Positions 2 to 20,886 of a DNA stretch of 64,000 nt are shown here, piece by piece. Source of the DNA: Escherichia coli (lineage in GTDB: Bacteria; Pseudomonadota; Gammaproteobacteria; Enterobacterales; Enterobacteriaceae); NCBI RefSeq assembly GCF_051903065.1, contig NZ_CP178438.1, one strand, 5' to 3'. Below the pieces are notes generated by a model. It did no database searches. It saw only the letters and a list, made by a program, of their open reading frames with translations, and was not told the origin of the DNA. The position numbers and the translations under genes were made by a program. The number at the start of each line of letters is the position of its first letter. The stretch's first letter is position 1.

Positions 2-883
2 AATGATTTTGTTCGCGCCGCCAATATCATCCTGCACTGCGAAGGCAAAGTGGTGGTTTCGGGAATTGGCAAATCGGGCCACATTGGTAAGAAAATCGCC
101 GCAACGCTTGCCAGTACTGGCACACCGGCTTTTTTTGTCCATCCGGCAGAAGCACTACACGGCGATCTGGGGATGATCGAAAGCCGCGATGTGATGCTGT
201 TTATTTCTTACTCCGGTGGCGCGAAGGAACTGGATCTGATTATTCCGCGTCTGGAAGATAAATCTATCGCGCTGCTGGCGATGACCGGCAAACCGACGTC
301 ACCGCTGGGCCTGGCGGCGAAAGCGGTGCTGGATATCTCCGTAGAACGCGAAGCCTGCCCGATGCACCTTGCGCCGACCTCCAGCACCGTCAATACCCTG
401 ATGATGGGTGACGCGCTGGCGATGGCGGTCATGCAGGCGCGCGGATTTAATGAAGAAGATTTTGCCCGCTCCCACCCAGCCGGGGCACTGGGCGCTCGCT
501 TGCTGAATAAAGTGCATCATCTGATGCGCCGTGATGACGCTATCCCGCAGGTAGCGTTAACCGCCAGCGTGATGGATGCGATGCTGGAACTCAGCCGCAC
601 CGGTCTGGGGCTGGTGGCGGTATGTGACGCTCAACAACAGGTACAAGGCGTCTTTACCGACGGCGATTTACGTCGCTGGCTGGTTGGCGGCGGCGCACTC
701 ACCACGCCAGTTAATGAAGCGATGACGGTCGGCGGCACCACGTTGCAATCGCAAAGTCGCGCCATCGACGCCAAAGAGATCCTGATGAAGCGCAAAATCA
801 CTGCCGCACCGGTGGTAGATGAAAACGGCAAACTCGTCGGCGCAATTAACCTGCAGGATTTCTATCAGGCCGGGATTATTTAA
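2..883 (+). CDS. gutQ: D-arabinose 5-phosphate isomerase GutQ (SIS + CBS domains); 5' end lies outside the window
   Basis: Frame is open from position 2 ([26 protein letters not shown]...); SIS-domain motif VVSGIGKSG and C-terminal CBS pair; stop TAA 881-883; ORF track 50..883 is the internal-Met version. Confidence 0.85.
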
Positions 884-2394
884 TCCTTCAATCCCAGACG
901 TTTCGCCAGCCGATGCAGGTTGGCGACGTCGGTTTCCAGCATTCGCGCGCAGGCTGCCCAGTTGTGATGATTTTGTGCCAGTGCCTGACGAATAGTTTCA
1001 CGCTGGAACGCTTCTGTCGCTTCACGCAGGTTTTGCTTAACAACGGGCACCGCCGCCGCTTCTGGCGGCGGTAACGTCACCTCAGGAAAAGCAAAATGTT
1101 GCGCCTCAAGAATCACTTCATCGCCGCTGCGGGTGGCTCTCGCCAGCACTACCGCCCGATGAATAGCATGTTCCAGTTCGCGCACGTTCCCCGGAAAACG
1201 ATAGTGTTGCAGTAAATTTCGCGCTCCGGCACTTAATACCACGCGGGAGAGCCCCTGCCGCAAACGACACTGCTCGCAGAAATACCCCGCCAGCAGAATG
1301 ACATCATCGCCCCGCTCACGCAGCGGCGGCACCGAAAGTGGAAACACGCTCAGGCGGTGGAACAAGTCAGCGCGAAATCGCCCTGCCAGCACCTCTTCGC
1401 GTAAATCGCGGTTAGTCGCCGCCAGCACGCGCACATCGACCCGCAAACTACGGTCATCGCCAACGCGCTGAATATCGCCATACTGCAACACCCTCAGCAG
1501 CTTGGCCTGCAATGCCAACGACAACTCGCCGATCTCATCCAGAAACAGCGTGCCGTTATCCGCCATTTCAAACTTCCCACTGCGGTTACTGATTGCGCCA
1601 GTAAACGCTCCTTTCACATGCCCGAACAACTCACTTTCCGCCACACTTTCCGGCAGTGCGGCACAGTTGAGATAGACCAGCGGATTCACCGCCCGTGGCG
1701 AGGCCTCATGAATCGCTTTCGCCACCAGCTCCTTACCGGTTCCCGTCTCACCGCTGATCAGGACGTTGAGATCGGACGCCGCCACAATCTCAATCTCTTT
1801 TTTCAGTTGCGTCATGCCTGGCGACAGACCGATCATCTGCGTCTGTTTCACCGCTTCAAATGGAGCGGCATCGCCCGGCAGCATATTCTGGCTTTCCAGT
1901 TGCTCAATCAGCAACGCATTGCTTAACGCTCCCGCCGCCAGCGCGGCAATCAGGCGTAACTCTTCGTCACTGAAAACATCGAACTGATCGGGCTGCATTC
2001 CGTCGAGCGTCAATGCGCCGATCAGGTTTTGTCCGGCAAACAACGGCAGACCAACGCAGGCGTGGACCTTCAGACTCTCCTGTCCGGGAATCAAACCATC
2101 ATAGGGATCGGGCAATTCGCTGTCTGCGGGAAAGCGCACCACGTCCCCGGCGCGGGCAATCGCTTCCAGCCGTGGATGCCCTTCCAGCGCAAAGCGTCTA
2201 CCGAGTACATCCTTTGCCAGACCGTCGATGGCAAGCGGAATAAACTGCCGCGAATCGTAACGTAGCAACGCAGACGCATCGCACTCCAGCACCTGACGCA
2301 GCGTGGTGATCAGGCGCTGAAAACGATCCTGATGACCAATCCCACGCTGCAATTCGATGGCGATATTCGCCAGCACATCAACGGAAAAACTCAT
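880..2394 (-). CDS. norR: Sigma54-dependent NO-responsive transcriptional activator NorR (GAF + AAA+ + HTH)
   Basis: ORF 880..2469; start placed at [18 protein letters not shown] (ATG 2394); AAA+ motifs GETGTGKE and GAFTGA; divergent from norVW. Confidence 0.9.
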
Positions 2395-2406
2395 CTTTGC
2401 CTCACT

Positions 2407-2462
2407 GTCAATTTGACTATAGATATTGTCATATTGACCATTTGATTGATAGTCATTTTGAC
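2407..2462. promoter_or_regulatory. Three NorR enhancer sites of GT-N7-AC type
   Basis: GTCAATTTGAC (2407-2417), GTCATATTGAC (2428-2438), GTCATTTTGAC (2452-2462), upstream of the sigma54 promoter. Confidence 0.6.
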
Positions 2463-2517
2463 TACTCATTAATGAGCATAATTCTATTTATATAGTAAAA
2501 ACAATCAGATAAAAAAC

Positions 2518-2533
2518 TGGCACGCAATCTGCA
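2518..2533 (+). promoter_or_regulatory. Sigma54 (-24/-12) promoter of norVW
   Basis: TGGCAC-GCAAT-CTGCA, 48 nt upstream of norV ATG; AT-rich tract between it and the NorR sites. Confidence 0.65.
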
Positions 2534-2580
2534 ATTAGCAAGACATCTTTTTAGAACACGCTGAATAAATTGAGGTTGCT

Positions 2581-4020
2581 ATGTCTATTGTGGTGAAAAA
2601 TAACATTCATTGGGTGGGTCAACGTGACTGGGAAGTGCGTGATTTTCACGGTACAGAATATAAAACGCTGCGCGGCAGCAGCTACAACAGCTACCTCATC
2701 CGCGAAGAAAAAAACGTGCTGATCGACACCGTCGACCATAAATTCAGCCGCGAATTTGTGCAGAACCTGCGTAATGAAATCGATCTGGCGGATATCGATT
2801 ACATCGTGATTAACCATGCAGAAGAGGACCACGCCGGGGCGCTGACCGAACTGATGGCACAAATTCCCGATACGCCGATCTACTGTACAGCCAACGCTAT
2901 CGACTCGATAAATGGTCATCACCATCATCCGGAGTGGAATTTTAATGTGGTGAAAACTGGCGACACGCTGGATATCGGCAACGGCAAACAGCTCATTTTT
3001 GTCGAAACACCAATGCTGCACTGGCCGGACAGCATGATGACTTACCTGACAGGCGACGCGGTGCTGTTCAGTAACGATGCTTTCGGTCAGCACTACTGCG
3101 ACGAGCATCTGTTCAACGATGAAGTGGATCAGACGGAGCTTTTTGAGCAGTGCCAGCGTTACTACGCCAATATCCTTACGCCGTTCAGCCGCCTGGTAAC
3201 GCCGAAAATTACCGAGATCCTCGGCTTTAACTTACCAGTCGATATGATAGCGACCTCTCACGGCGTGGTATGGCGCGATAACCCGACGCAAATTGTCGAG
3301 CTGTACCTGAAATGGGCGGCTGATTATCAGGAAGACAGAATCACCATTTTCTACGACACCATGTCGAATAACACCCGCATGATGGCTGACGCTATCGCCC
3401 AGGGAATTGCGGAAACCGACCCACGCGTGGCGGTGAAAATTTTCAACGTCGCCCGAAGCGATAAAAACGAAATCCTGACCAATGTCTTCCGCTCAAAAGG
3501 CGTGCTGGTCGGCACTTCGACGATGAATAACGTGATGATGCCGAAAATCGCCGGGCTGGTGGAGGAGATGACCGGATTACGCTTCCGTAACAAACGCGCC
3601 AGTGCTTTCGGCTCTCACGGCTGGAGCGGCGGTGCGGTGGATCGTCTTTCCACGCGCCTGCAGGATGCGGGTTTCGAAATGTCGCTTAGCCTGAAAGCGA
3701 AATGGCGACCAGACCAGGACGCTCTGGAGTTATGCCGTGAACACGGTCGCGAAATCGCCCGTCAGTGGGCGCTCGCGCCGCTGCCGCAGAGCACGGTGAA
3801 TGCGGTAGTTAAAGAAGAAACCTCTGCCACCACGACGGCTGACCTCGGCCCACGGATGCAGTGCAGCGTCTGCCAGTGGATTTACGATCCGGCAAAAGGC
3901 GAGCCAATGCAGGACGTTGCGCCAGGAACGCCGTGGAGTGAAGTCCCGGATAACTTCCTCTGCCCAGAATGCTCCCTCGGCAAAGACGTCTTTGAAGAAC
4001 TGGCATCGGAGGCAAAATGA
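2581..4020 (+). CDS. norV: Anaerobic nitric oxide reductase flavorubredoxin NorV
   Basis: 479 aa; metallo-beta-lactamase-like N-terminus, flavodoxin-like middle, C-terminal rubredoxin CxxC...CxxC (CSVCQW...CPEC). Confidence 0.95.
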
Positions 4021-5150
4021 GTAACGGCATTGTGATCATCGGTTCGGGCTTCGCCGCCCGCCAACTGGTGAAAAATATTCGCAAACAGGACGCAACTATT
4101 CCATTAACCCTGATTGCCGCCGACAGCATGGATGAGTACAACAAACCTGACCTCAGCCATGTTATCAGTCAGGGGCAACGTGCCGATGACCTTACCCGCC
4201 AGACGGCGGGTGAATTTGCCGAGCAGTTTACTCTGCGCCTGTTTCCGCAAACCTGGGTGACGGATATCGATGCCGAAGCCCATGTGGTGAAAAGCCAGAA
4301 TAATCAGTGGCAATACGACAAGTTAGTGCTGGCAACCGGTGCCAGCGCCTTTGTCCCGCCTGTGCCTGGGCGTGAGTTAATGCTGACGTTAAATAGTCAG
4401 CAAGAGTATCGCGCCTGTGAAACGCAACTGCGGGATGCCCGACGCGTGTTGATTGTTGGCGGTGGTTTGATTGGTAGCGAACTGGCGATGGATTTTTGTC
4501 GTGCAGGCAAAGCGGTCACGCTCATCGACAACGCTGCCAGTATTCTGGCGTCGTTAATGCCACCGGAAGTAAGCAGCCGCTTGCAGCATCGGTTGACGGA
4601 GATGGGCGTTCATCTGCTGTTGAAATCTCAGTTGCAGGGGCTGGAAAAAACGGATTCTGGCATTCTGGCAACGCTGGACCGCCAGCGTAGTATCGAAGTG
4701 GATGCGGTAATTGCCGCCACCGGACTGCGCCCGGAAACCGCCCTGGCACGACGCGCCGGGCTGACGATTAATCGCGGCGTTTGCGTCGATAGTTATCTGC
4801 AAACCAGTAATGCCGATATTTACGCGCTGGGCGATTGCGCGGAAATTAACGGTCAGGTATTGCCGTTCCTCCAGCCGATTCAACTTAGCGCGATGGTGCT
4901 GGCAAAAAATCTTCTCGGCAATAACACGCCGCTGAAACTACCGGCGATGCTGGTGAAAATCAAAACGCCGGAATTACCGCTGCATCTGGCAGGCGAAACC
5001 CAGCGTCAGGATTTACGTTGGCAGATTAATACCGAACGCCAGGGAATGGTGGCGCGCGGCGTTGACGATGCTGACCAGCTTCGCGCCTTTGTGGTAAGTG
5101 AGGATCGGATGAAAGAGGCATTTGGATTGTTGAAAACGTTGCCGGTGTAG
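4017..5150 (+). CDS. norW: NADH:flavorubredoxin reductase NorW
   Basis: 377 aa; ATGA overlap with norV stop; FAD/NAD Rossmann motifs GSGFAA and GGGLIG. Confidence 0.93.
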
Positions 5151-5154
5151 GTGG

Positions 5155-5560
<406 letters not shown>

Positions 5561-20371: not shown

Positions 20372-20833
20372 TCATGCTGCCGGGCTTTGTCCCTTTACCA
20401 GTTGGCTTAAATTCACCGGCACATTGTTTTCAATAGCGGTGTATAAGCTGTCGTAAACGCCAGCGATTTTTTCGAGATAGTGTTCCAGAACCTGTTCGCG
20501 ATCGCGGATGTTGACCTTGCCATCAATCATGCCGTCAATGCTCAGTTGTGCCTGCGCAATCCGCTGTTTGTCTTCGCCATCTTTTGTTTCGACGTAATAC
20601 TCGATGGTGTGGCTGTTAAAGCCATCCGCCAGGGTGACGTAAATACGAAAATGTTCAAAAAGGACGAAACAGAGTTCTTTGTCCGGCGCGCAGCTCATGG
20701 CGTGATGCAGGCGAGCTTTCGATAACGTGATCCCCTGAACCAGCGAATTGCAGTAGATGTGCCACTGGTCCTGTAGGCGACGATGCCGCTGTGCGATGTA
20801 ATCGGCTTTCTCGCTTATTTCCCAAATAGTCAT
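20372..20833 (-). CDS. hycA: Formate hydrogenlyase regulatory protein HycA
   Basis: 153 aa; first gene of hyc operon, divergent from hypA. Confidence 0.9.
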   Translation of the reverse strand: MTIWEISEKADYIAQRHRRLQDQWHIYCNSLVQGITLSKARLHHAMSCAPDKELCFVLFEHFRIYVTLADGFNSHTIEYYVETKDGEDKQRIAQAQLSIDGMIDGKVNIRDREQVLEHYLEKIAGVYDSLYTAIENNVPVNLSQLVKGQSPAA

Positions 20834-20870
20834 TGTCAGGTTACCCGTTTAACAGAGATGCCAGCTTTAA

Positions 20871-20886
20871 GCATTTTTTGTGCCAA
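20871..20886 (-). promoter_or_regulatory. Candidate sigma54 promoter of the hyc operon
   Basis: Minus strand reads TTGGCAC-AAAAA-ATGC with GG-N10-GC spacing, about 35 nt upstream of hycA ATG. Confidence 0.5.

Follow-up and report, generated by a model that had tools for sequence, protein, structure and literature searches.

The divergent norR–norVW control region in an Escherichia coli chromosomal segment: an intact natural variant of the system characterized in K-12

The window analyzed here, a stretch of 64,000 nucleotides of E. coli DNA, carries the gene order srlR-gutQ-norR<>norVW-hypF, which is that of the E. coli chromosome. The features of the norR–norVW locus are collected in Table 1. 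Alignment with K-12 MG1655 placed the complement of the norR start codon at positions 2392-2394 and the ATG of norV at 2581, and the interval 2395-2580, which a preliminary description had singled out as the norR-norV regulatory region, runs exactly from the one start codon to the other.

Table 1. Features of the norR–norVW locus, in window coordinates
Feature	Position	Strand	Sequence	Remarks
norR	880-2394	-		NO-sensing sigma-54 enhancer-binding protein, 504 aa, GAF + AAA+ + HTH
norR–norV spacer	2395-2580			186 bp, norR start-codon complement to norV ATG
NorR enhancer site 3 (promoter-distal)	2407-2417		GTCAATTTGAC	12 bp from norR start codon
NorR enhancer site 2	2428-2438		GTCATATTGAC	K-12 form GTCATATCGAC; T2435 makes the palindrome perfect
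NorR enhancer site 1 (promoter-proximal)	2452-2462		GTCATTTTGAC	
A+T-rich spacer	2463-2517	+		55 bp, 79% A+T, from site 1 to TGGCAC; reported IHF-binding region
norVW sigma-54 promoter	2518-2533	+	TGGCACGCAATCTGCA	TGGCAC-N5-CTGCA
norV transcription start (+1), putative	2544	+		from footprint limits -137/-84 on G2407/G2460
norV ribosome-binding site and start codon	2571-2583	+	TGAGG + ATG	block TTGAGGTTGCTATG kept in relatives
norV	2581-4020	+		flavorubredoxin, 479 aa, intact, without deletion
norW	4017-5150	+		NADH:flavorubredoxin reductase, 377 aa

The three proteins were each recognized by a family model. NorR matched the NCBIfam equivalog NF003451 over residues 2-503 (823.7 bits against a cut-off of 476), and Pfam assigned GAF, Sigma54_activat and AAA_lid domains to it. 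Full-length matches were obtained for NorV with NF003954 (1046.5 bits, cut-off 711) and for NorW with NF003437 (683.2 bits, cut-off 392); norV and norW are annotated in the same way in K-12 and in strain ECNB21-M121. Compared with K-12 NorR, 499 of 504 residues are identical, the GAFTGA motif is intact at residues 262-267 and the C-terminal HTH is unchanged. A 529-aa version of norR, starting at an upstream ATG at 2469 in a mechanical list of open reading frames, was rejected; it would run across all three NorR sites. The 504-aa form starting at 2394 is annotated in K-12 and in an identical strain, and the family model matches it from residue 2. Between norW and hypF, four tandem 97-bp units of REP/BIME type occupy 5155-5542, ∼290 bp more than in K-12, where a single 97-bp REP-type unit follows norW.

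The preliminary description had placed three GT-N7-AC sites about 21-24 bp apart in the spacer. Measured from start to start, their spacing is 21 and 24 bp, and sites 1, 2 and 3 each fit the stricter inverted repeat GTCA-N3-TGAC as well. With no more than 4 bases specified, GT-N7-AC is very weak as a pattern, and the motifs might in principle be chance matches in A+T-rich intergenic DNA with no regulatory role. Against such an origin, the stricter repeat occurs 6 times in the 64-kb window, for which 0.84 occurrences are expected (0 of 100 shuffles reached 6), and three of these 6 matches lie within 56 bp. A fourth match to GTCA-N3-TGAC, GTCAACGTGAC at 2618-2628, which speaks for chance, lies in norV (codons 13-16) and was considered as an extra NorR site, but seems to be a coding by-product of the conserved peptide WVGQRDWEV. 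This motif is kept in only 9 of 31 relatives. The Gly codon that it includes changes freely at its third position among those sequences, and the motif is best explained by the coding constraint. The fragment used in the published functional fusion truncates the same motif (PMC2831303).

Comparison with published mutagenesis identified the sites with those validated experimentally in K-12. Tucker et al. 2010 mutated each NorR site from GT-N7-AC to GG-N7-CC (PMC2831303). When the primers from that work were restored to wild type, those for site 1 and site 3 were found to equal window positions 2444-2471 and 2395-2424 exactly, and the wild-type form of primer Site2+ equals 2422-2447 with C/T at 2435 as the sole mismatch. 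The Site3+ primer, CTTTGCCTCACTG[T>G]CAATTTG[A>C]CTATAGAT, thus matches site 3 in its wild-type form, and site 1 is matched both by primer Site1+ and by the 21-bp site-1 oligonucleotide GATAGTCATTTTGACTACTCA (PMC2831303). With any one site disrupted, norV-lacZ was no longer induced, DNA no longer stimulated the ATPase of NorR and open complexes did not form (PMC2831303). In genomic SELEX with NorR, the single major peak falls in the norR/norV spacer (PMC8249747).

Dimethyl sulfate footprints of NorR, seen as protected or enhanced G residues, extend from -137 to -84 (PMC2831303). The distance from G2407, the first base of site 3, to G2460, the G of TGAC in site 1, is 53 bp and is the same as that between the two footprint limits. 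Given this coincidence, the norV transcription start would lie at 2544, or at 2546 if the residues numbered were G residues of the bottom strand. The published footprints therefore map onto the three sites proposed and not elsewhere. Taken together with the retention of the sites in register across genera, alongside norR and a sigma-54 element, these data leave a chance origin with a negligible probability; the published mutagenesis and footprints had already refuted it (PMC2831303).

Downstream of the three sites, the TGGCAC-N5-CTGCA element that had been described was found at 2518-2533. It matches 10 of the 11 specified positions of the sigma-54 consensus TGGCAC-N5-TTGCW, and TGGCACNNNNNYTGCW is matched twice in the window, where 0.27 matches would be expected. 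With a start at 2544, TGGCAC spans -26 to -21 and CTGCA spans -15 to -11; the GG pair lies at 2519-2520 and the GC pair at 2531-2532, such that G2520 is -24 and C2532 is -12, the canonical sigma-54 geometry. The conservation profile of relatives includes a block, ACATCTTTTT, that spans the putative start. An RpoN holoenzyme peak is present in the norR/norV spacer in genomic SELEX (PMC8743547). All elements claimed for the spacer were thus recovered at the positions originally given, base for base. A search for structured RNA in the spacer and leader gave no Rfam match at E-values up to 1.

Two further sigma-54-type elements occur in the window, at 20749-20764 and 20870-20885, both on the minus strand. 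TGGCACATCTACTGCA, the second match to TGGCACNNNNNYTGCW, lies inside a 153-aa open reading frame at 20372-20833 (hycA) and is a possible intragenic sigma-54 site; TGGCACAAAAAATGCT, found with a looser pattern, lies upstream of this frame in the hycA/hypA spacer. Both hycA and the hycA/hypA spacer were assigned by gene order only. The hycA/hypA spacer is also marked by RpoN in genomic SELEX in K-12 (PMC8743547).

The suggestion that the A+T-rich tract between the enhancers and the promoter could bind IHF is reasonable and has backing in the literature. In K-12, IHF is reported to bind the stretch that separates the enhancers from the start site (PMC2831303, citing Tucker 2004), and the conserved consensus found in relatives agrees with this location. 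On the other side, no match to the IHF consensus WATCARNNNNTTR with ≤1 mismatch was found within 2463-2517, where the best matches, at 2499-2511 and 2503-2515, carry 2 mismatches. Since the tract lacks such a match, the IHF site is not placeable from the window sequence alone. In 20 of 39 norR-adjacent sequences from relatives, a match to WATCARNNNNTTR with ≤1 mismatch begins 18-19 bp upstream of TGGCAC, and TTAAAATCAATAAAATAAAAAG forms a conserved block just upstream of TGGCAC, while the segment corresponding to 2467-2494 is variable. Relatives carry WATCAANNNNTTR where the window has 2499-2515; the E. coli sequence at the homologous position is AAACAATCAGATAAAAAAC, which has 2 mismatches whichever register is taken. 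From this alignment, the IHF core of the window is likely to be situated at about 2499-2515. Two 1-mismatch IHF matches on the minus strand at 2435-2451, between NorR sites 2 and 1, were set aside as unremarkable, there being 111 such matches in the window.

The interval 2395-2580 is thus almost certainly the divergent norR–norVW control region, at which NorR, bound to three sites, activates norVW from a sigma-54 promoter, probably with the aid of IHF; no observation was found to contradict this reading. Induction of norV that depends on NO, NorR and RpoN has been demonstrated for K-12 (PMC2831303 and works cited there). NorR binding, the need for all three sites and NO sensing are likewise taken from the literature. 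The present analysis shows that the sequence elements are there and coincide with the sites mapped experimentally in K-12, that the genes are intact and that the arrangement is conserved. In the mechanism proposed, NorR dimers would fill the three GTCA-N3-TGAC sites, whose centers lie about 87, 111 and 132 bp upstream of the putative norV start, and occupation of all three would allow NorR to form an active higher-order AAA+ oligomer. Binding of NO at the iron center of the GAF domain would lift the repression of ATPase activity. The oligomer would then touch the closed complex of sigma-54 RNA polymerase at the promoter, a contact probably aided by an IHF-induced bend in the 55-bp A+T-rich DNA. 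ATP hydrolysis would open the promoter, and norVW, encoding the NO reductase and its own reductase, would be transcribed from about 2544.

The three enhancer sites, with which the norR promoter and 5' leader would overlap, may additionally serve as operators for repression of the divergent norR gene by its product. Such a role would supplement norVW activation and not compete with it as an explanation, and its probability is judged to be evenly balanced. Given that no more than 12 bp separate site 3 from the norR start codon, the norR promoter must be situated within or beyond the site cluster, and the same sites may mediate autoregulation. Negative autoregulation of norR was reportedly described by Hutchings et al. 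2002. NorR is annotated as a 'dual regulator' in K-12 and regulates both norR and norVW (PMC8249747). Weighing against this role, a sigma-70 scan of the spacer found no promoter-like site for norR on the minus strand; the scan gave one plus-strand candidate (2426-2453), which scored no better than shuffled sequences.

The closest known system is the K-12 region studied by Tucker et al. 2004 and 2010 and by Gardner et al. 2003. The K-12 norR–norVW region has the same length of 186 bp, and 182 of the 186 bases (98%) are identical to those of the window; site positions and spacing, the -24/-12 element, the leader and the flanking genes are all the same. The architecture expected for NO-responsive norVW activation, earlier said to be well preserved, is upheld by this identity together with the intact genes and the published sites. 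The control region is therefore one already known and well characterized in K-12, of which the copy in the window is an intact natural variant. It is a textbook example of a sigma-54 enhancer system, with its biochemistry worked out in K-12, and carries little weight as a discovery. Its value is that of a correct annotation anchor, which identifies the window as E. coli chromosome and norVW as intact and presumably NO-inducible.

The four substitutions that separate the window from K-12 comprise C to T at 2435, in site 2, and three changes within the A+T-rich tract, at positions 2475, 2484 and 2493. The 501-bp region is present in 5,425 of 5,426 complete E. coli genomes. The 71-bp enhancer cluster of the window is identical in 313 of 5,426 genomes and the others differ from it by 1-2 bases; the enhancer-cluster allele of the window is a minority allele in E. 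coli. By comparison, 3,511 genomes share the promoter and leader segment of the window (2500-2580) without change. In a sample of 8 sequences spread across E. coli, the GT/AC cores, the GG at -24 and the GC at -12 never vary, site 3 is invariant and the A+T-rich tract varies most.

Since each site is essential in K-12 (PMC2831303), site quality could matter, and a minority allele with one change in site 2 and three in the IHF tract might measurably alter the NO response relative to K-12. Such an effect is considered improbable. T2435 lies in the interior of N7, outside the GT/AC core, and T is the majority state at this position among Enterobacterales relatives with the same architecture, so both alleles are evidently functional; in E. 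coli as in relatives, no part of the spacer varies more than the A+T-rich tract. The more specific proposal that the window allele, with its three perfect palindromes and altered A+T-rich tract, tightens NorR assembly or cooperativity, or alters IHF bending, and so shifts the NO threshold relative to K-12-type alleles, is rated as slightly less probable still.

Further changes were seen in two other E. coli strains. In AHM8C212RI (locus L007, 136-355), the core of the norV -24/-12 element has undergone a 14-bp tandem duplication, CACGCAATCTGCAA, with the upstream copy intact. In ETEC4079 (locus L006, 134-339), TGGCGC replaces TGGCAC and several changes are present in the A+T-rich tract. Natural variation of this kind, namely C or T in site 2, the variable IHF tract and the 14-bp duplication of the promoter core, could be used to probe enhancer-site quality and tolerance of spacing.

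The distribution of the triple site was assessed by scanning one genome per species for 100,044 species with the pattern GTCANNNTGAC-N8-14-GTCANNNNGAC-N10-16-GTCANNNTGAC. At least 120 loci were found, against a random expectation that we estimate at ∼0.4. Because the pattern itself demands three sites, their conservation in this set is partly by construction, while the links to norR, to a sigma-54 element and to NO genes are independent of it. A norR or norV homologue is encoded at 43 of the 120 loci listed, with the triple site ≤450 bp from the norR start in 41. Among the matches listed, an element of the form TGGCA(C/T)-N5-(C/T)TG(C/A) lies 41-64 bp past site 1 in all 39 norR-adjacent loci with enough sequence, and the target genes beside norR are norV or flavohaemoglobin genes. 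The loci rejected as unrelated to NorR consist of 43 plain tandem direct-repeat arrays and 21 other, mostly imperfect arrays from Bacteroidales and other groups (both of the 120 listed).

A further 13 of the 120 loci listed combine the triple site with a TGGCAC-type element 41-43 bp away, with no norR in the DNA fetched. These loci, from Pseudomonas and Pantoea (L012, L032, L046, L053, L062, L065, L066, L077, L083, L085, L086, L092 and L101), are likely to be remote members of the NorR regulon. Among the genes downstream are ones for a flavohaemoglobin, an NnrS protein, an 82-aa membrane protein without a Pfam match and a 116-aa Gly-zipper lipoprotein.

Relatives within the Enterobacterales resemble the window most closely. 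Citrobacter, Enterobacter, Lelliottia, Kluyvera, Pseudescherichia, Morganella and E. albertii share the triple GTCA-N3-(T/N)GAC at offsets of 0/21/45 bp. As in the window, norR and norV(W) are divergent in Enterobacterales relatives, and the gap from site 1 to TGGCAC is fixed at 53-56 bp in 26 Enterobacterales loci. Two differences were observed. In many relatives a clean IHF consensus, such as AATCAATAAATTA, is found 18-19 bp upstream of TGGCAC, whereas the E. coli version is degenerate; and in many the -12 element reads TTGAT instead of CTGCA, such that the canonical GC is absent, with all other spacing kept. The TTGAT loci include L019, L037, L038, L050, L106, L107, L113 and others, from Enterobacter, Lelliottia, Pseudescherichia and other Enterobacterales.

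Beyond this order, the same arrangement of three GT-N7-AC sites and a sigma-54 -24/-12 element is found at the NorR/FhpR-controlled hmp/fhp promoters of Pseudomonas, Stenotrophomonas and Diaphorobacter and in the NorR-norA system of R. eutropha. The hmp/fhp-type loci of Pseudomonas, Stenotrophomonas, Diaphorobacter and others also have a divergent norR homologue, with 46-50% identity. By contrast with the flavorubredoxin of the window, their target is a flavohaemoglobin of 392-398 aa (Globin, FAD_binding_6 and NAD_binding_1 domains). The gap between enhancers and promoter, at 41-43 bp, is shorter than that of the window, and an IHF-like consensus lies on the opposite strand, at -30 in six sequences of this group.
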